Shown here piece after piece: positions 8,263 to 46,879 of a stretch of 64,000 nt of DNA (positions are counted from its first letter, which is position 1; every line of letters starts with the position of its first letter). The translations under genes and the position numbers were made by a program. The notes under the pieces are model-generated. The model was given only the letters and a program-made list of their open reading frames with translations. It was not told the origin of the DNA and searched no databases. Source of the stretch: a virus (lineage: Duplodnaviria; Caudoviricetes); the IMG/VR virus record IMGVR_UViG_3300033273_000833, positions 96,001 to 160,000 of that record; one strand, written 5' to 3'.

Positions 8263-10533
8263 ATGAAAATTCTAACTATTCTATTATTGTCATCAATTTT
8301 CTGCTTTGGTGATGTTCTTTATTTTAATAACGGAAAAGACCTAAAAGGCGATATTATTGAAGCGAACGCGACACACGCATTAATTAAAAGATCAAGCGAC
8401 TTGCAGTTATTTAGAATCGCTATCGATTCTTTAACAGAAGACAATCGGGCGTATATTAAAAACAATTTTGCACCCAGCCATGAAGCTCTACCTAAGTTCA
8501 ATAAACCCTTGTCTGATAAAGAGTTAACTACCCACTCCAAATACATTGATAGTTTAATTGAAACAAAATTAAGATCATACAATCTTAGGTCGAATAAAGA
8601 AGTTGATGATGCCACTTTTTTGCGCAGATCTTATTTAAAAATTATCGGCAGAACACCATCATTAACCGAAGTAGACTCCTTTTTAAATAGCAGAGAAAAT
8701 AATAAAAGATCTAAATTAATTGATCAATTACTAGGCAGCGAAGGCTATGTAAGCCATTGGTTTAATTTTTGGGCAGATATATTAAGAATAAAAGATCGAC
8801 TGAATAATAGAATATCTGGAGTGCCATACAAAAATTATGTAAAAGATTTTATATCTAATAATAGGCCTTACGATGAATGGGTAAGAGAGATGCTTTCCTC
8901 TTCTGGCCCATTATGGATAAAAGGCAATGAAGGAGTTAGTTATTTTGCTCGAGATGTAAATATGCCTCTTGACAGCATGGCTAATACAGTCCGAGTTTTT
9001 TTAGGTACTAGCCTTGAATGCGCTCAGTGCCATGATCACCCTTTTGATCGTTGGACACAAAAACAATTTTATGAAATGGCAGCATTTACGAGTGGGTCAA
9101 CCAATTTAAGAATAAAGAGTCCAGATAATTTAACTCAGTTAAACAGGCTAGTGAGGGACGAAAGAAAAAAACTAGAAGATTCAGATCAGCCTCAAAAATC
9201 AAGACAATTATCAAATGCTGTCAGAGATATCCAAGATATTCTGCAAACTGGTTTAACTAGTTTAGGAAATGGTAAGATAAATTTACCGAAAGATTATCAA
9301 TATAACAATGCAAAACCAAATGAAGTTTTATTAGGTAAAACAATTTTTGGAAAAGAAATCGATATCAAAACTAAAGCTCCTGACGCTGGTTCTAGAGAGA
9401 TTTACGCTAATTGGTTGGCTTCAGATTCTAACCCAAGATTTACCGCTGTAATTGTAAATCGTTTATGGAAAGAAGTGTTTGGGCTTGCCTTAATTGAACC
9501 TCTGGATAATATGTTCGACGATACTCTCGCAACTGATACAAAACTTCAGTTACATTTGGAAAAAGTTATGGTTGCATTAGATTATGATTTAAAAGAATTT
9601 TTGAGGATATTATATAACACAAAGACTTTTCAAAGACAATCTGTAGTTCGAGATGTAATACCTAAAGACAATAAAGATCAGTCTATGCCTGTAGATGTAA
9701 AATGGATCATAGCTGGACCAAATGTAGAAAAGCAATCTCAAGGAGCAATTCCATATTTCTATCAAGGGCCAATACTCGAAAGAATGAGTGGCGAGCAAAT
9801 CTGGGACTCTTTAGTCAACTTAACCTTTAATGATATAGACTCTAGAAAATTAGAGCAAAACACAAAAGGTTACCAGAATTACGAAAATTTTTCCGAAATG
9901 ACTGGAGAAGAATTGTTTGCAGACATAATGGCTAAAATTAATAAAACAGAAAAGCCAAAAATAGAGAAGAAGACTAAGTTTTCTGAACCTATCAACACCG
10001 ACTGCCCCATAAAGCCTGGGAGGGCAATTGATCCAACATTATTAGCTCTAAACGAAAACGGAGAAACTCTTGCGTTTTGTTGCGAATCTTGCGTTGATAA
10101 ATATAAATCCCAGCAGAAAGCTAGAGAACAAGAGTATAAGCAGAATTTTGTTAAAGATAGAAACTCTGTCAGAGCCTCTGAACTGCCTTCCCCTGCTCCG
10201 ATTGGTCACTTAATCCGAGAGTTTGGAGGTTCGGATAGAGAGCAGATAGAAAATGCGCATAAAAGCGCCTCTGCAACACAAGTATTAAATTTACTCAATG
10301 GGTTTGTAGAAACTAGATTATTAAAAAATAAAAACTTTGAAATTATTAAAGCAATTCAATCTCAAAAATCATTAAATGATAAAATAAAAGTTGGATATAA
10401 ATACATACTAAATAGAGAGCCTGACACTAAAGAGTTAAGAATTTTTTCTGACAATTTAAAAAACGCAAAAGAACCTTATAAAGAAATAATATGGACGCTA
10501 ATCAATACTCATGAATTCATGTTTATTAAATAA
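8263..10533 (+). CDS. DUF1549/DUF1553 (PSCyt2/PSD1) protein with signal peptide, SHD1-like N-domain, CxxCH motif and YHS-like insert
   Basis: FLRRSYLKIIGRTP, WFNFWADILR, ECAQCHDHPFDRWTQKQFY, NPRFTAVIVNRLW, IWTLINTHEF. Confidence 0.9.
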   Translation: MKILTILLLSSIFCFGDVLYFNNGKDLKGDIIEANATHALIKRSSDLQLFRIAIDSLTEDNRAYIKNNFAPSHEALPKFNKPLSDKELTTHSKYIDSLIETKLRSYNLRSNKEVDDATFLRRSYLKIIGRTPSLTEVDSFLNSRENNKRSKLIDQLLGSEGYVSHWFNFWADILRIKDRLNNRISGVPYKNYVKDFISNNRPYDEWVREMLSSSGPLWIKGNEGVSYFARDVNMPLDSMANTVRVFLGTSLECAQCHDHPFDRWTQKQFYEMAAFTSGSTNLRIKSPDNLTQLNRLVRDERKKLEDSDQPQKSRQLSNAVRDIQDILQTGLTSLGNGKINLPKDYQYNNAKPNEVLLGKTIFGKEIDIKTKAPDAGSREIYANWLASDSNPRFTAVIVNRLWKEVFGLALIEPLDNMFDDTLATDTKLQLHLEKVMVALDYDLKEFLRILYNTKTFQRQSVVRDVIPKDNKDQSMPVDVKWIIAGPNVEKQSQGAIPYFYQGPILERMSGEQIWDSLVNLTFNDIDSRKLEQNTKGYQNYENFSEMTGEELFADIMAKINKTEKPKIEKKTKFSEPINTDCPIKPGRAIDPTLLALNENGETLAFCCESCVDKYKSQQKAREQEYKQNFVKDRNSVRASELPSPAPIGHLIREFGGSDREQIENAHKSASATQVLNLLNGFVETRLLKNKNFEIIKAIQSQKSLNDKIKVGYKYILNREPDTKELRIFSDNLKNAKEPYKEIIWTLINTHEFMFIK

Positions 10534-10950: not shown

Positions 10951-12243
10951 ATGAACTTAAATACAATAGACGAATTAGGAAGAAGAGAATTTATAGCTCA
11001 TGCCGCCAGAGCATGTTTTGGAGTAGGGTTAATGCCGATGGCGGGGGCATACATACATAATAGTGTTAGCGCTTTACAGCCTGGAGCTAGAGTTCCAACA
11101 GCCAGACACGTTATTTATTTAAATATGGCAGGGGCAATGTCTCATCTGGACACATTTGGCCCGAAACCCGATGCTCCTGATATCCAAGGCCCAACTCAGT
11201 CTATTTCTACAAGTGCAGACGGTATTATTTTATCAGAAAATTTACCCTTAACCGCTCAACACATGCATAATGGCTCTATTATTAAAACAATGGTTACGAG
11301 TCAAGGCGCGCATGAGCAAGCAAGCTACCTAATGCACACAAGCTATCTTAAAAGAGGCACTATTGTACACCCAACTTTTGGTAGCTGGGTTTCAAAACTT
11401 TCAGGATCAATCAATAGAACGATTCCAAGTAATATAAAAATCGGCGGAGGCGGAGGTGGAGCTGGATTTTTAGAGTCTAAATACGGAGCACTTCCCATCA
11501 ATAATCCTTCATCAGGTTTAGCTAATAGTAAGATGGCTTCATACTTAGATCATGAGCATTTTCAGAGCAGAATATCTATTGCAGAACAGTTAAACGAAAA
11601 TTTCTCCACAGAGTTTCCTCAAAAGCAAGTTAGAGCTTATGGTGACCTCTATAAAGACGCCATTAAATTAATGAATAGCAATGATCTTAATGCGTTCGAT
11701 ATAACCCAAGAAGCTGAGTCAACAAGTTCTCTCTACGGACCAACTAATTTTGGTAAAGGCTGCCTACTAGCAAGAAGGCTAGTGGAGCATGGAGTAAGAT
11801 ATGTTGAAGTCACAAGAGGAGGATGGGACACTCATGACAATAATTTTGAAAGAGTAGCGGCTAATTGCGCTGATATAGACAAGGCCTTAAGTGGGCTACT
11901 TATAGACTTAGATAGAAGAGGTCTGCTATCAGAAACTCTAGTTGTTCTAACTTCAGAATTTGGACGCACTCCAAACATTAACGGCAGAGACGGCAGAGAT
12001 CACTGGCCTTACTGCTTCACAGCGTTCCTAGCAGGAGGCGGAGTCAAAGAAGGCTTTAGTTACGGAGAGACAGATAAAACTGGCAGATCCCCTACGGAAG
12101 GCAAACCAATTAAGCCTGAAGATCTGAATGCTACAATTGCTCATACGCTAGGCTTACCACTAAATGACTATCAGTATTCGCCGTCAGGAAGGCCTTTTAC
12201 CATAGCTCATAAAGGCGAGCCTTTATTTGATATTTTGGCTTGA
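10951..12243 (+). CDS. DUF1501 family protein with Tat-type signal
   Basis: GRREFIA twin-arginine signal; GAMSHLDTFGPKP, GGWDTH, SEFGRTP, GRDHWP. Confidence 0.9.
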   Translation: MNLNTIDELGRREFIAHAARACFGVGLMPMAGAYIHNSVSALQPGARVPTARHVIYLNMAGAMSHLDTFGPKPDAPDIQGPTQSISTSADGIILSENLPLTAQHMHNGSIIKTMVTSQGAHEQASYLMHTSYLKRGTIVHPTFGSWVSKLSGSINRTIPSNIKIGGGGGGAGFLESKYGALPINNPSSGLANSKMASYLDHEHFQSRISIAEQLNENFSTEFPQKQVRAYGDLYKDAIKLMNSNDLNAFDITQEAESTSSLYGPTNFGKGCLLARRLVEHGVRYVEVTRGGWDTHDNNFERVAANCADIDKALSGLLIDLDRRGLLSETLVVLTSEFGRTPNINGRDGRDHWPYCFTAFLAGGGVKEGFSYGETDKTGRSPTEGKPIKPEDLNATIAHTLGLPLNDYQYSPSGRPFTIAHKGEPLFDILA

Positions 12244-39576: not shown

Positions 39577-41868
39577 ATGATTATCACACAAAACAAATCT
39601 AAAGAAGTAGTTAGTTCTCACGATTTCGAGCAAGTAAATTGCACGATTGATGCCGAAGATATGCGTTATGTTGCATCTCTTCTTCGCAACAATTATTCCA
39701 ATACTCGCCTTGCAGTCGTTCGTGAGATTAGTGCGAACGCACTCGATGCCAATACTGAAGCAGGAGTAAATCGTCCAATCGAAATCAAGTTACCAACTGC
39801 AATGAATCCAACATTTGCAGTTCGTGATTTCGGGGGTGGACTTAGCCAAGAAGATGTTTTCGGTCTTTACTCCAAGTATGGCAAGTCAACCAAGCGTACA
39901 TCCAACAATTATATCGGTGCTTTCGGTATCGGTAAATTTGCTCCACTTTCTTATGGTGACAACTTTACTTGCGTTTCTTTCCATAATGGAACAAAAACTT
40001 CTTACAATGTATTTGTCGATGAGAATGACGATACCAAGATCACAAAGTTGTTTGAAGAACCAAGCAATGAGCCAACAGGTTTGAGTATTGAAGTTGCAGT
40101 CGCAGAAGATGATCGCAAAGAGTTTAGAAATGTTGTGCAAAATTTCTTTCGTTTCTTCTCTGACTCTGATATGCCAAAATTTCTCGGAGTTGAAGAAGAC
40201 TTTATACAAACTCCAAAAAAAGTTTTATCAAGTAAGACTGACGAATGGTTCTTTGTAGAAGAGAATAGACATGGATACAATCATTACTATTCTTATGTTC
40301 TTATGGGTAGAGTTGCTTACCCTATTGATCCAAACGCAATAAATGTAGAAAATTTTGTGTCCGATGAAAGTTCTCGCAGAATAGTTCAACAACTTTTATC
40401 ACAAAGTAATTTCTACTTTCGTGTGCCTCTTGGTTCAGTAAGATTGCATCATAGTCGTGAGTCGCTAGAATACAACAAAGCAACTCAAAAAGAAATTTGT
40501 GCGATTCTTTACAAAGTAAGTAAAGATATTCAGACTATTGCAAAAGAAAAACTTGCCGATAGTGAAGACTTATATGAAGCAAAAAGAAATTATGCTCAAG
40601 TCATCAATGCTCTACCTTATCAAGTAAGATCAGTATTTGAGAATAGTTTCGAGTGGAATGGTATCAAAATTGATAGTTCCTGCTTTCAAAGAGATTACCA
40701 ACTGCAAGAAGACTTAATTATTACTCAATACGAAAAAATTGAAGATAAAGATTCTCGCAATGGTTTTAAGGTGCAAGCACAAAAGTCAAATCGTGTTTTC
40801 TGCCAAGATCATCATGTTATTATGATGCAAGATATTGAATCTTCTCATGGTAATAATCTTAGAGTTCGCACTTTGATGAATGAATTGCCCATTAATGCAG
40901 TCACTATCGTTTACGCTAATTCTGAATGTGCTAAAGCAGAAGTTTACGATAATTGGCAATTTGACCTTATTGATCCAAAGCATATTAGATACTCTTCTCA
41001 AGTCGAGAAAGAGAAGATTGTACGCAATAAAGTATCGGGTACGAGTCGTGCTTCTATTCCCTTGTTCAAAATGAAATTTGACAAATCTAGCTACGCTTAT
41101 CGCAATGCAGACTATTGGCAAAATGTAAGTGATCCAATCAATTCTCTTGAGCTAGACAATATTGAAGGTTCTGTCAACAATAAAATTCTATATGTTCCAA
41201 TCAAGAACTATAAGATTGACAATGAGACTTATGATCTTGACAGGGTTTACAAAATCTGCCAAAGCATCAGAAAGAAAGCAGAAGATAATTCTCAAGAAAA
41301 AAGTTTTGTTTTATTTGGTGTTCGTGCAGGTGATGTCAAAAAATTAGACAAGAGTACATGGATGTCTTTCTTTGACTTTTATGTTGAGCATTGCAAAAAC
41401 ATAATTCGTGAAAACAAGAAAGAGTCTCAATCTGCATACAAAGTAATTCAATTCAGAAAATCATCGAATCATAATTTTGGCGATTATCGTTGGAGTTACG
41501 GAAACCTTTTCTCCAATCGCACATTCAATATTGATACTCTAGGCAAAGAGCATTTGGTTAGTCGTTGTGCAGAAAATTGGAATCTTCTTATGGAAGAAAG
41601 TGCAAGTGTGCGTAAGTTTGAAGTTGCGATCAATGTTGTCAACCTAAGTGATCCCACATGGTTAGATGATGTATTGGGTGTAAAAGTTAATGCTGAATCA
41701 ATCATGGAAGACTTCTCTTTATTGAAGAAAAAATATCCTTTACTTAAAATGGTCGCTAAATCTACCAATCAATGGATGGACTTAGCTAGAAATAGTGATT
41801 ATGATAATAGCGATACAAATGCACAAATTTTACAATACATTTCCTTGTGTGATGGGGTTGGGGCTTAA
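39577..41868 (+). CDS. rIIA: rIIA-like protein (GHKL/HATPase N-terminus)
   Basis: YSN..LAVVREISANALDA, VRDFGGGL, STKRTSN..IGAFGIGKFAPLSY, SRESLEY; adjacent to rIIB-like gene. Confidence 0.85.
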   Translation: MIITQNKSKEVVSSHDFEQVNCTIDAEDMRYVASLLRNNYSNTRLAVVREISANALDANTEAGVNRPIEIKLPTAMNPTFAVRDFGGGLSQEDVFGLYSKYGKSTKRTSNNYIGAFGIGKFAPLSYGDNFTCVSFHNGTKTSYNVFVDENDDTKITKLFEEPSNEPTGLSIEVAVAEDDRKEFRNVVQNFFRFFSDSDMPKFLGVEEDFIQTPKKVLSSKTDEWFFVEENRHGYNHYYSYVLMGRVAYPIDPNAINVENFVSDESSRRIVQQLLSQSNFYFRVPLGSVRLHHSRESLEYNKATQKEICAILYKVSKDIQTIAKEKLADSEDLYEAKRNYAQVINALPYQVRSVFENSFEWNGIKIDSSCFQRDYQLQEDLIITQYEKIEDKDSRNGFKVQAQKSNRVFCQDHHVIMMQDIESSHGNNLRVRTLMNELPINAVTIVYANSECAKAEVYDNWQFDLIDPKHIRYSSQVEKEKIVRNKVSGTSRASIPLFKMKFDKSSYAYRNADYWQNVSDPINSLELDNIEGSVNNKILYVPIKNYKIDNETYDLDRVYKICQSIRKKAEDNSQEKSFVLFGVRAGDVKKLDKSTWMSFFDFYVEHCKNIIRENKKESQSAYKVIQFRKSSNHNFGDYRWSYGNLFSNRTFNIDTLGKEHLVSRCAENWNLLMEESASVRKFEVAINVVNLSDPTWLDDVLGVKVNAESIMEDFSLLKKKYPLLKMVAKSTNQWMDLARNSDYDNSDTNAQILQYISLCDGVGA

Positions 41869-41962: not shown

Positions 41963-43099
41963 ATGAATCAAGTACCATATCAACTCACAGAAAATTCACT
42001 CACTATCTTTTGGGAAGGTAAACCATATACCTTGCGTAAAGATCATGTAAACTTTAAACTTGCCAAGCAAGCAATCTTGGAAGCAAGATATGATGATCTT
42101 GGAGATTTGCTTGATATTACCAAGGCAGTCGAGAACTTTGTCGAGGGCGATATTGAGGTCAAGGATGAAGTTGTTTTCTACAAAGGTCATCGCTTGCATG
42201 GTGTTGTTGTTGAAAAACTACTCGAAATGCTTCGTGCAGGAATGAAAGATTCTGCTCCACTCACCAACTTTATTTCTCGTTTGCAAGCTAATCCAAGTGC
42301 AAATTCAGTAAATGAACTTTATTCTTTCATGAGTTACAAGTCTCTTGCGAATACTCCCGAAGGTAAGGTTTTGGGCTACAAAGGTGTTCAGAAAGACTTT
42401 TGGAGTACAACAGGCAATGCTGATACAATCGTATTGCAAGGCAAAACCAATGATCGTCACCAAATTCTCAATGAAGTTGGTGCAACTATCGAGGTTGCTC
42501 GCAGATGCGTAGATGACAATAAGGACAACCATTGTTCTTTCGGTCTTCATGTCGGCTCATACGATTATGCCAATAATTGGGCAGGAGTAGATGGTAGATT
42601 GCTCGTTGTTGAATTTGATCCTGCTGATGCAGTATCAGTTCCAACTGATTGTGATTTTCAAAAACTTAGGGTTTCCAAGTACAAGGTGATCTCTGATATT
42701 ACTGATACTCGTAAAGAGTTAAATAAACCTGTCTACGAGGCTAATAAGCCTATTTATGGATCAGATGATGATTTCGTTGATGAAGGCGAGTGGGATGACG
42801 AAGATTATGATAATGATTTTGTTGACATGGAAGATGAAGATGAAGATTACGGCATGGATCAAACTGAGCGTGAGGATGATGTTGTTTCTAAAATTCGTGC
42901 ATATATGAATAATAAATTATTGAACGGAGAAAAAGTTTTAATTAAAAACATTGCTGATTTAAGATTTTGCAAGAGTGAAAGACTGACTTGTGCAGGTGTT
43001 GCCGAAATAATAGATCAGATGAATGATTTTTCAATCCATGAGGAAGATGCAAGGGCAAATGTTCCTGTTAGTCTCAAAAGGGTTGTGAGGGATTCTTAA
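41963..43099 (+). CDS. rIIB: rIIB-like protein
   Basis: NPSANSVNELYSFM, TPEGKVLGYKGV, HCSFGLHVGSYDYA, VVEFDPADAVSVP.D..KLRVSKY. Confidence 0.75.
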   Translation: MNQVPYQLTENSLTIFWEGKPYTLRKDHVNFKLAKQAILEARYDDLGDLLDITKAVENFVEGDIEVKDEVVFYKGHRLHGVVVEKLLEMLRAGMKDSAPLTNFISRLQANPSANSVNELYSFMSYKSLANTPEGKVLGYKGVQKDFWSTTGNADTIVLQGKTNDRHQILNEVGATIEVARRCVDDNKDNHCSFGLHVGSYDYANNWAGVDGRLLVVEFDPADAVSVPTDCDFQKLRVSKYKVISDITDTRKELNKPVYEANKPIYGSDDDFVDEGEWDDEDYDNDFVDMEDEDEDYGMDQTEREDDVVSKIRAYMNNKLLNGEKVLIKNIADLRFCKSERLTCAGVAEIIDQMNDFSIHEEDARANVPVSLKRVVRDS

Positions 43100-44170: not shown

Positions 44171-44201
44171 CTTGACACAAATAAGAATTTAAATTATAAT
44201 T

Positions 44202-45462
44202 ATGGTATTGATGAGCGAGAAAGATAATAGCGTTAGTTACCTTCAGCACCATATAGACTTCACATTCCCCGAAATAATGATGCAGGAGCAAATAAATGAT
44301 GTAGGATGGATAGATCAGTCGCAAATAATGGGCGAGCCACAAATAAGAGCGTTTGCGAGCTTTGAGGGGTCGAATCTAATTGCCCTGTTCCCCTTCTTTG
44401 ATCCAACAGGGAACTACCCTGTGCAGGAAGATTGAATAAAATTTTTTATAAAATAAAGAAAAATAAAATTAATACTTGACTTGTTTTATATTCTATACTA
44501 TACTTATATACATCATGACAATAGCAAAAGAGATAAATAATAAACTTGATACAATATTAAATATTAGATCAGAAATAAAAAAGATGCGGGCGGAACTAAG
44601 TGCCGACTCCGAGTTAGTGAATCCCGACACAGGCGACAAACTGCTTCGGGACGAAGCAATAGGTATCGCCGAGGAAGTAATAAATAAAGTACAAAATGAT
44701 ATAAATCAAATAACAAATAATGGGAAGAATGTACGAAATATTTTTAATAATCAATACTATATAAATGATATGCTACAAGATAAGCAAATTGCAAACGAAA
44801 ATTTATCAAATATAAAAGCATTTATACAGGAAAGTGAGGATAAGATTAAATAAAAAATTTTATTAATTTATTTGGAGGCATAGAGTCCGTCGATGAGGCG
44901 GGACGAGGTAAGTCATCACCTGCATTGAACACTCCAAATCTTTTTTCTTGACAAAACGAAGACAATCGACTAGACTTATAGCATAACAATCAAACAAGGA
45001 GGAAAAAATTATGGGTAACATAGCTAAATGTGCAAGAGCAACTTCAATTATGAACAATGTACAAAGAGGGGCATATGTGGGCATGAGTAAGTTCGCCAAC
45101 TATGGTTCTATTGTCGAGGATAGTATCTTCGCACAACAAAGAGAGGCAGATCGCAGGTTGAAGGAGATTCAAGCCAAGCGTCTCAAAAAAGCAAAGGGGG
45201 TAGCGTAATGGATGCAACAATTAAACCAATTAATAATAAGGTTAGTATGTTCGCAACTGATGAAGAATTATATGAACAATTAACTGCAAAAGAATTAATG
45301 TTAATTAAGTTGGTTAAAGTAGAAGAATATGTAGATGATTTATATAGAGCACATGATTCTGATACAAATAAAAAATTATTTCCACCTGAGAAGAGTTGGT
45401 TTAAAATAAAAGAATTATTAAGAGAGTGCAGAAAAATTAATAAAAGTAAAATAAATACTTGA
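44202..45462 (+). other. Four early-type hypothetical ORFs (44202-44435, 44515-44853, 45011-45208, 45208-45462)
   Basis: Promoters at 44172, 44476, 44948; strong AAGGAGG before 45011. Confidence 0.6.
44870..44939 (+). ncRNA. Candidate 70-nt structured RNA element (three-way junction)
   Basis: ATTTGGAG/CTCCAAAT closing stem, inner GTCC/GGAC and AGGT/ACCT stems; GC-rich island in an AT-rich spacer. Confidence 0.4.
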
Positions 45463-45493
45463 CAAATAAGACTAAATATACTATAATTATATA

Positions 45494-45834
45494 CATAAAT
45501 TGAGAAACAAACTCAAATAAATAAAATAAATTGATCTTTAACATTTTTAACACTTTGGAAGGGCTTATAATCCTTCCTGTGGGTGACTGAACAAACCTGT
45601 CGTAAGCGGGTTAAAGTATGCAGATCCCTGTGGTGGGGATGACAGAGTCCAATCGGATGAGTCAAATGGCAAATACCACGCCTAGTCTGTAGTTCAAAGT
45701 AGGAAACTCGAAACTGAAAGTTTACGCCGAAAAGATGGAGGTATCTCAGAATCCTCCCCCACACTATATTTCCCCATCCGTGTAACCCCCACACATCCCG
45801 CCCCTCTCAGGAATATTCTTGAGAGGGGTTTTTT
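45494..45834 (+). ncRNA. Stand-alone structured ncRNA transcript resembling the manA RNA motif (core about 45557-45763)
   Basis: Own promoter TTGACA(45459)-17-TATAAT; boxA-like TGATCTTTAACA 45532-45543; stems GGAAGG/CCTTCC, TGTGGG/CCCACA, GTAA tetraloop hairpin, ATCCC/GGGAT, GGAGG/CCTCC; terminator at 45801. GGGTGACTGAA.AAAC..GGTTAA and GGTAT..GAATCC recalled from manA RNAs. Confidence 0.65.
45801..45834 (+). terminator. Intrinsic terminator
   Basis: CCCCTCTCAGGA-atat-TCTTGAGAGGGG followed by T6. Confidence 0.9.
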
Positions 45835-45872
45835 GTTTTGACATTTCCAGGAAACCTGCCATACTTATTATT

Positions 45873-46127
45873 ATGAAAACATTAAAAGACATATTATCAA
45901 ACTACGGATACATCACGAAACCTCAGCTTGCCGAGATCGTTGATTATTTCCCGCACATGAAGGTCGTCATTAAATGGGGAGGAATGCCCCGTGAACGGGT
46001 TCATGCTTGGGAGGCAATCCAACGCATCGAAAAGGTAGAGAACGAGGATATTGACTACTGTCGAGAAGTTTTTCTTAGTGGTAAAGATTGCGAGAATCTT
46101 AGAGTAGCACTACATATAGCAAACTAA
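45873..46127 (+). CDS. Hypothetical early protein
   Basis: Start 7 nt after CATACT of the promoter at 45838. Confidence 0.65.
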   Translation: MKTLKDILSNYGYITKPQLAEIVDYFPHMKVVIKWGGMPRERVHAWEAIQRIEKVENEDIDYCREVFLSGKDCENLRVALHIAN

Positions 46128-46448: not shown

Positions 46449-46501
46449 ACTATTTTAAAAAAAGGCTTGACTTGCGGAAGTTTTCTGTCATAATTGTATA
46501 C

Positions 46502-46879
46502 ATGATCAGAACAAAAAGCGACAAGAGATACGACATCGACTTTAGTAAGAAGGTGTTTGTATATAAGAATCTTCATAAAGACTGTTGGTCAGTCAAACAA
46601 GGCGGGCTTGTCAAGGCACACGCAGACAGCTTGGAGATGTGGGATTGCAGCTTCCAAGTAAACCAAAAGGGGCGGGCAAAAGTCATTCAAGAAAAGCGTA
46701 AGAATGTTCATGCGGGCATTTCAGGCAGGATAGACGATCTTGGTGGAACAATTGCAATTGGCACAGAAGTTACATACAACCCGTACAAGTATAGCTCTTT
46801 TGTAGAAAAAGGCACAGAAAATCCCGTATATTATGCAGGATTTGCATCATTAACCCATAACAGAGTACTAGTAGCATGA
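46502..46879 (+). CDS. Conserved phage hypothetical protein
   Basis: KVFVYKNLHKDCWSV, VNQKGRAKV..EKRKNVHAGI, VTYNPYK; start 7 nt after CATAAT. Confidence 0.7.
   Translation: MIRTKSDKRYDIDFSKKVFVYKNLHKDCWSVKQGGLVKAHADSLEMWDCSFQVNQKGRAKVIQEKRKNVHAGISGRIDDLGGTIAIGTEVTYNPYKYSSFVEKGTENPVYYAGFASLTHNRVLVA

Follow-up and report, generated by a model that had tools for sequence, protein, structure and literature searches.

A manA RNA as a free-standing early gene with an rRNA-style leader in a large uncultured marine phage

Does a manA RNA have to belong to the messenger of a neighbouring gene, or can it be a gene of its own? The question is raised by an uncultured marine phage (IMG/VR record IMGVR_UViG_3300033273_000833, 203 kb, 34% G+C), of which we analysed positions 96,001 to 160,000; this stretch of 64,000 nucleotides (nt) is called the window here, and coordinates refer to it unless the genome is named. 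In cyanophages and Photobacterium manA is a likely cis-regulator according to Weinberg et al. (2010; PMC2864571), a paper on a cyanophage genome says the same (PMC9964418), Rfam files manA as type 'Cis-reg', and for 16 years the RNA has been kept as an orphan candidate for a cis-regulatory element or riboswitch. Our analysis of the manA region at 45459-45835 and of about 50 relatives finds this known RNA family in a new genomic guise, i.e. as a free-standing early gene with a conserved leader in the style of ribosomal RNA (rRNA) operons. In one clade of large marine phages manA is its own gene, and its constant companion is the rRNA-style leader and no particular protein gene.

The manA RNA and the limits of its gene

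The Rfam scan of the whole window gave manA (RF01745) as the sole match, at 45557-45767 on the + strand, where all features of the region given below lie as well; it is also the only copy in the genome. The match covers the full model (1-192 of 192) with 85 bits, compared with a gathering threshold of 55.2, and an E-value of 3e-20. The core is a full-length member of the manA family, which is more than the mere resemblance that a first-pass annotation, made from the sequence without database searches, had noticed. It shares with the published manA RNAs the full covariance-model match, the helices, the conserved loops and the origin from marine phages, and differs from the cyanophage-type copies in its junction, which reads UGUGGGUGAC here versus GGGAGUGAC there.

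We collected relatives of the locus in two ways. The gene-anchored set consists of 30 viral contigs found through the open reading frame (ORF) of 84 amino acids (aa) that follows manA in the window, with 58-95% protein identity. The RNA-anchored set, found through the invariant junction CCTGTGGGTGAC, has at least 25 true manA loci, at least 17 of which lie on contigs new to the collection. A full-length manA (61-93 bits) is encoded by each of the 19 distinct gene-anchored relatives, and the 21 distinct gene-anchored loci all have one layout, i.e. a consensus promoter, the leader, manA, a linker, a terminator and then the next gene with its own promoter.

The fold of the core is well supported by these relatives. 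It starts with a hairpin (45557-45577), read from the sequence, that is directly followed by TGTGGG (45578-45583), the 5' strand of the outer helix of the Rfam alignment, whose 3' strand is CCCACA (45758-45763). The outer helix is paired in 19 of 19 relatives but is nearly invariant, and hence gives no covariation. RNAalifold on the 19 sequences recovered the Rfam helices with 54 base pairs, 25 of which have double compensatory changes, so the stems covary; a lack of covariation was what the first-pass annotation had named as a refutation. The conserved motifs, i.e. the GUGACUGAA junction, GUGGUG, ACCA, ACUG and the CAGU-containing loops, match both the model consensus and the relatives, and the GNRA tetraloop GUAA (45602-45605) is GUGA in the relatives. 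CTGTGGGTGAC resembles the boxC of Escherichia coli, TGTGTGGG; this is an analogy only, since CTGTGGGTGAC is part of the manA outer helix.

Two pairs of loops in the core are complementary to each other and are candidate kissing-loop partners. The loop GUGGU (45630-45634) could pair with the loop ACCAC (45675-45679), and the loop CUGA (45714-45717) with the loop UCAG (45746-45749). The first pair shows a compensatory change to GUGGC/GCCA in L136 and L138, and the second reads ACUG/CAGU in most relatives with a compensatory ACUAA/UUAGU in L142 and L144. These pairs were checked by hand only, the automated scoring of complementarity, which allowed G-U pairs and wide windows, being too noisy. The pairings may form within one molecule or between molecules, which the sequence alone cannot distinguish.

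On the 5' side the RNA gene has a sigma70-type promoter, TTGACA-17-TATAAT (45459-45487), that agrees with the consensus at 12 of 12 positions, and an AU-rich leader of 69 nt lies between this promoter and manA. On the 3' side there is a G-poor, pyrimidine-rich linker (45768-45799), which is 11-58 nt long and poorly conserved across the 21 loci, with on average 5% G and 29% C. It is followed by an intrinsic terminator (45800-45835) found by a consensus scan, with a 13-bp stem (45800-45829) and a T-run; the best hairpin that ends at the T-run extends 5' into the linker and has a folding free energy of about -24 kcal/mol. A terminator is found in 21 of the 21 distinct loci, with energies from -16 to -26 kcal/mol and 5-8 T, and the stems are unrelated in sequence between the loci. 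The next gene in the window, the 84-aa ORF (45873-46127), has its own promoter, TTGACA-16-CATACT (45838-45865), overlooked in the first-pass annotation, which leaves 7 nt between its -10 box and the ATG at 45873; its placement so close to the ATG predicts a leaderless mRNA for this ORF. The distance from the end of the terminator to the ATG is 42-47 nt in 20 of the 21 loci, and the outlier L137 (19 nt) is a parsing artefact, its hairpin having been read through the true T-run. The 84-aa ORF has 30 homologous loci and is a usual but not obligatory neighbour: at least seven of the RNA-anchored loci, e.g. L256, L259, L274, L288 and L293, have a different gene after manA.

The position of a cis-regulatory element in a 5' untranslated region (UTR), as published for cyanophages and Photobacterium, is not what we found here, with a terminator after manA at every one of these loci and a separate promoter for the next gene. 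As such a position is a property of the context and not of the RNA, the membership in the manA family stands. A protein-coding reading of the core was rejected: it has no + strand ORF of at least 30 aa, the lengths of the cores differ by non-multiples of three, an antisense ORF of 93 codons stays intact in no more than 5 of 21 relatives, and no ORF is conserved on either strand. A promoter and a terminator that belong to the RNA, and the lack of a conserved ORF, agree with the claim of a dedicated RNA gene in the first-pass annotation, and the elements which that annotation had listed (promoter, boxA-like element, 5' hairpin, TGTGGG/CCCACA, GNRA loop and terminator) were all found where it had placed them.

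The RNA is transcribed, since the manA core is found in metatranscriptome contigs from four studies; the first-pass annotation had named the lack of a transcript as a refutation. There are 14 runs recorded as RNA, each of which covers a small share of our 901-nt query, and four of them, from four studies, were examined; the runs X1-X4, labelled metatranscriptomic and probably DNA, were excluded. The manA-matching contigs of these RNA libraries are 153-195 nt long and all lie within 45562-45764: a contig of 187 nt in X10 (45562-45748), one of 182 nt in X14 (45571-45751), one of 195 nt in X6 (45570-45764) and an adapter-flanked insert in X9 (45587-45725). X14 has two more short contigs that overlap the core in part and then diverge, and therefore derive from more distant relatives. 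The leader, the terminator and the flanking genes have no cover in the RNA-library contigs, which as contigs cannot prove absence. No joints were seen in these contigs, and nothing in them suggests a circular form. Contamination with DNA would not single out the RNA, which argues for a transcript that exceeds its neighbours in abundance or in stability. That the manA core is the only part of the region to assemble in metatranscriptomes argues for a stable and abundant RNA product, and the extents of the contigs give a weak hint that the leader and the ends are trimmed.

The leader and its boxA-like element

What could the leader be doing in front of such an RNA? It contains a boxA-like element, TGATCTTTAACA (45532-45543), that agrees with the rrn boxA of E. 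coli at 11 of 12 positions, starts 45 nt past the -10 box and ends 13 nt before manA. It is predicted to be mostly unpaired (mean probability of being unpaired 0.65). Upstream of it is a hairpin in a boxB-like position, TTGAG-AAACAAA-CTCAA (45500-45516), which the first-pass annotation had overlooked; its arms are predicted to pair, its sequence is unique in the 203-kb genome, and the spacing from the hairpin to boxA is 15 nt. A weaker promoter-like site, P2 (45500-45527, TTGAGA-16-TAAAAT, 10 of 12 to the consensus), overlaps the hairpin. Relatives retain the stem of this hairpin, and their one double change, to TTAAG/CTTAA in L157-L160, fits an RNA stem better than the overlapping promoter-like site.

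No other segment of the cassette is as conserved as the leader: its mean pairwise identity is 0.82, followed by the promoter, which every related locus conserves, at 0.80, the manA core at 0.75, the ORF at 0.71, the upstream region at 0.53 and the linker with the terminator at 0.44. The boxA core G[A/T]TCTTT is kept in 30 of 30 gene-anchored loci and, among the matches listed, in 24 of 24 RNA-anchored loci with enough upstream sequence, and in all of these 54 related loci, short leaders included, boxA is inside the transcript. It is this conservation, not the isolated match, that gives the boxA-like element its weight. The element is retained where the downstream gene differs, and it is retained where an RNA of 60-140 nt closed by a stem has been inserted between boxA and manA. 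It is also retained in L259, L274, L288 and L297, which have lost both the leader hairpin and the second promoter-like site, and the hairpin is dispensable because it is absent in these loci. The boxA-like element, judged from its conservation across these loci, is under strong selection and tied to the manA RNA.

The leaders are of two types, one TGATCTTTAACA-like and a rarer one TGTTCTTTAATA-like, and both converge on G[A/T]TCTTT[A/T]A. The TGTTCTTTAATA-like type fits the published boxA consensus GYTCTTTAANA exactly (PMC5725501), and the variant GTTCTTTAATA of L137 and L150 agrees with this consensus at 11 of 11 positions. A recurring promoter element of the MotA-box type was considered and rejected, as the boxA pattern of the clade has 6 occurrences in the 203-kb genome versus 3.8 expected and the hairpin is unique. 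A search with the pattern GTGGGTGACTGAACAA was too narrow and gave no new loci, its further matches being chance ones in coding DNA.

The inserted RNAs are an observation of their own. The extra RNA of 60-140 nt in the boxA-manA interval is found in L133, L137, L145, L150-L153, L256, L259 and L277, and again in L293, L331, L344 and L358; one insert family, starting with TTTGAGCCTAGCCC and ending with GCTAGACTCAA, recurs in L256, L259 and L358. Six inserts (L133, L137, L145, L150, L151 and L153) were compared with Rfam, and no family matched. These RNA genes look modular.

We compared the leader with the 16S rRNA leaders of four genomes of marine Opitutales, the probable host lineage (L242-L245), each of which has a promoter, a small hairpin, TGTTCTTTGAAA and a GT-rich stretch, the boxA TGTTCTTTGAAA being about 115 nt before the 16S gene. 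The order of hairpin and then boxA is shared with the phage leader, and it fits a mimicry of the host rRNA leader, if the host is rightly assigned. The spacing between the two differs, 15 nt in the phage versus 2-3 nt in the host-lineage rRNA leaders. As a side observation, the small hairpin of the L242-L245 leaders is directly followed by TTGTTCTTTGAAAGTTATTTTGTGTGATC, which gives a clear boxB-boxA-boxC-like arrangement in Verrucomicrobiota.

The arrangement may also be compared with other boxA systems. The rRNA operon leader has a boxB hairpin, boxA and boxC and works with NusB, NusE, NusA and NusG together with SuhB (PMC4807359, PMC6614797), and the phage locus likewise has a strong promoter, a hairpin, a boxA-like element and a long untranslated, structured RNA with pairing ends, here TGTGGG/CCCACA. 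Unlike the rRNA operon, the product here is a phage RNA of ~210 nt, and the putative Nus site differs from the boxA consensus at 1 of 11 positions. In lambda nut, boxA is followed by a boxB hairpin for the N protein; here the order is reversed, with the hairpin at 45500-45516 and boxA at 45532-45543. Stringer et al. reportedly described in 2020 a boxA in front of CRISPR arrays. The 5' UTR of E. coli suhB carries a boxA (PMC5725501), and so does the early region of T7 according to a source that cites Savalia et al. 2010 (PMC3709561), which makes T7 a case of a phage borrowing boxA with no N protein. In all three, as in the phage locus, a host-type boxA comes soon after the promoter of a transcript that is untranslated or not yet translated; they serve mRNAs or CRISPR precursors, whereas the manA boxA is dedicated to, and co-inherited with, one small structured RNA.

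What the RNA gene may do and the explanations that compete

Our analysis suggests that the region is a self-contained early manA RNA gene, probably transcribed by the host polymerase with the help of boxA and Nus factors, and we hold this reading with moderate confidence, Nus recruitment, protection from Rho, end trimming and assembly in the cell being its inferred parts. Transcription would start a few bases past the promoter, at roughly 45494 by prediction, and the 69-nt leader would contain the small hairpin and expose the boxA-like element as a single strand. Much as in rRNA operons, in CRISPR arrays and in the early transcripts of T7, boxA may recruit the host NusB/NusE(S10) and other Nus factors to the polymerase, and the Nus complex could, as in those systems, shield the untranslated transcript from Rho-dependent termination and perhaps aid its co-transcriptional folding. 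The polymerase would complete the manA fold of ~210 nt and stop at the intrinsic terminator, and the next gene would use its own promoter. The leader and the 3' tail are probably trimmed to leave a stable manA core of ~200 nt. By homology with the manA RNAs studied by electron cryo-microscopy (cryo-EM), several cores probably join by their complementary loops and form closed particles made of RNA only.

The last step draws on a recent preprint. According to Ren et al. 2026 (10.64898/2026.07.01.735769), manA RNAs transcribed in vitro form a 60-subunit icosahedral cage, decamers or octamers. The cryo-EM assemblies are built from pentamers joined by the intermolecular kissing loops L5-L7' and L8-L9', with a GNRA-receptor contact plus kissing loops as an alternative way of joining. 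The loop-loop complementarities of the window RNA are similar to those of these pentamers, the loop numbering of the preprint not being mapped onto the window sequence. The work is in vitro, and the preprint still calls manA 'putative cis-regulatory'. The first-pass annotation had called manA function-unknown, which is out of date in view of the self-assembly in vitro reported in the preprint. The locus and its relatives add biological context to the cage preprint.

GOLLD, ROOL and OLE are large multimeric bacterial or phage RNAs of 400-800 nt that form RNA-only assemblies. Like manA, these are phage-associated, ornate, free-standing and oligomerising, and they belong to other families, manA being only ~200 nt.

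We speculate that manA might be a structural RNA of the phage, mass-produced early by an rRNA-like route and self-assembling in the cell into cages or rings by which something would be enclosed, sequestered or scaffolded; this is a tentative idea, and we consider it possible though rather doubtful. If true, it would be a protein-free compartment built by a virus, with the boxA-led and terminator-closed cassettes as its genomic signature. The first-pass annotation had gone in another direction, proposing a role in host takeover from a position of the RNA gene at the head of the early cassette array; this idea found no support, and consensus early-type promoters are also found upstream of the manA cassette, e.g. 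at 44172.

Several observations weigh against the boxA-assisted RNA gene and have to be set beside its support. The boxA match in isolation is at chance level, with 1 occurrence of at most one mismatch to the E. coli boxA in 64 kb versus 0.69 expected. The window sequence GATCTTTAACA agrees with GYTCTTTAANA at 10 of 11 positions (PMC5725501), with an A at the Y position (C or T). To TGTTCTTTGAAA, the rrn boxA of the probable host lineage, the window boxA agrees at 9 of 12 positions and rarer clade variants at 10 of 12, the host itself being inferred. It is the whole AU-rich leader and not boxA alone that is conserved, so it may possibly have another role, and the leader hairpin is supported by one compensatory event only. 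The manA family as a whole does not seem to need a boxA leader, as 0 of 82 cyanophage-type copies have one. On the side of the product, assembled contigs cannot define the ends, the strand or the level of a transcript, and the contig breaks coincide with strain-variable regions (the P1 hairpin and the tail); cage formation is an in vitro result on other members of the manA family and is carried over to this RNA by homology; and the probable host is assigned from a single carried gene of the DUF1501 family.

An alternative hypothesis could be that manA is a stand-alone gene whose leader is the place where RNase E or another nuclease enters or processes the transcript, or else a second promoter or the target of a phage protein, any similarity to boxA being incidental. 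Such a leader would account for the conservation of all 69 nt, the A-rich spacer included, for the overlap of P2 with the hairpin and, through its removal, for RNA contigs that lack it, and the off-consensus Y position and chance-level lone match of boxA agree with it too. We nevertheless think it unlikely: boxA outlives the hairpin and P2 in the four loci that have lost them, survives the insertions before manA and is where the two leader types converge, the rarer TGTTCTTTAATA being nearer to the rrn boxA of the probable host, and the motif lacks the genome-wide repetition expected of a general protein site. The hairpin and boxA could also act as a nut-like element that confers resistance to termination over a long distance, allowing read-through of the terminators of manA and of the downstream early cassettes, the RNA being secondary. 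They do lie behind a strong early promoter and upstream of an array of promoter-terminator cassettes, and boxA is used in early transcription by lambdoid phages (PMC3526286) and by T7 (PMC3709561). This appears improbable to us, as the hairpin precedes boxA as in rRNA leaders and unlike the textbook boxA-boxB order of lambda, the element is linked to manA rather than to any set of genes downstream, there is a single such site in 203 kb, a strong terminator directly follows manA at each of the 21 loci with the downstream genes each having a promoter, and rrn-type complexes, by textbook knowledge, mainly counter Rho and not intrinsic terminators.

The oldest explanation is a riboswitch, in which the ligand state of a manA aptamer would set the terminator at 45800 and thereby control the 84-aa gene. 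The order of promoter, aptamer, terminator and gene is the classic layout, manA is a likely cis-regulator in the view of Weinberg et al. 2010 (PMC2864571), the 84-aa ORF follows manA in most loci and the cyanophage-type copies mostly run into genes. Against this, the energies of aptamer-terminator duplexes are no better than those obtained after shuffling the terminators (21 loci, mean z 0.06), the terminator stems are unrelated and the linkers vary from 11 to 58 nt, and in 18 of 21 loci the minimum-energy fold of the full length still contains the terminator. The 84-aa gene moreover has a conserved promoter placed for a start at its ATG, at least seven loci have another gene after the same RNA, and the RNA contigs are of the core alone. 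We therefore regard a riboswitch as very improbable here. The lack of a conserved switching sequence together with the other downstream genes makes the manA RNA a unit of its own. All three rivals are less well supported than the RNA gene assisted by boxA and Nus factors, which, if Nus factors are indeed used, would add a case of a phage borrowing the rRNA transcription machinery of its host for a small RNA.

The cyanophage-type family, the phage and its probable host

How peculiar is the boxA-led cassette to this clade? We compared it with 85 distinct manA loci of the cyanophage type. The promoter abuts the RNA in 62 of 82, no boxA-like motif was found within 140 nt upstream of manA (0 of 82), and none of the 82 has the 69-nt leader with hairpin and boxA. 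A nearby terminator is found in 15 of 85 and a transfer RNA (tRNA) gene within 200 nt in 9 of 86, and manA mostly runs into genes. The absence of boxA and the few terminators in these copies make the boxA-led, terminator-closed cassette a variant peculiar to the present phage clade.

Some cyanophage-type contigs have features of their own. Many cyanophage contigs (L021, L023, L025, L101, L105, L109, L117 and others) have, just after manA and ahead of a transaldolase-like ORF (MKIFLDTAD...), a conserved hairpin, AGACCTAAGATGCAAC-loop-GGGCAGATGGTCT, with a T-run behind it; this hairpin may be a terminator or a further RNA element. L103 and L114 have manA, a terminator and then a sequence like the glutamine riboswitch/Downstream-peptide motif (CGTTCATCC...GGACGCAAGTA). 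In L008, L010, L013, L025, L108 and L113, tRNA genes flank manA or start a few bases after it.

The phage is not a cyanophage. It encodes rIIA (39577-41868) and rIIB (41963-43099) just upstream of the manA region, both ~27% identical to their counterparts in cultured phages, and the rIIA search yields only such distant relatives. A blastn search of the manA region against 50,697 phage records gave no nucleotide match. With rIIA relatives at only ~27% identity and no blastn match, there is no cultured relative to serve as a reference.

Its host is probably a marine Opitutales bacterium, as suggested by one gene that the phage carries. This DUF1501 gene (10951-12243; see also 8263-10533), used as a host probe, is 70-82% identical to genes in about two dozen marine Opitutales/Opitutia (Verrucomicrobiota) genomes; one metagenome-assembled genome labelled Cellvibrionales matches at 70%, and any other full-length match is at most 51%. 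These identities mark it as a gene recently taken from the host, and no better clue to the host was found. Five candidate host genomes had no match to manA, which is uninformative on absence, as these genomes are incomplete and control genomes were likewise without manA. The range of manA would thus extend from cyanophages to phages of a probable Verrucomicrobiota host.

A few other features of the genome may be mentioned. Neither the 84-aa ORF nor the ORF upstream of the manA region has a match in Pfam, PHROGs or the ESM Atlas, and ARAGORN found no tRNA genes in the phage genome. A transfer-messenger RNA with an unusual tag, GNKNRVKAFGLKAKKLALAA, is encoded at genome position C1:66699-67062, ~29 kb before the window. 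Two genes downstream of manA, an ORF of 135 aa (46472-46879) matches the Mycobacterium phage L5 gp82 family (Pfam PF25735, E-value 2e-34) and PHROG 586.

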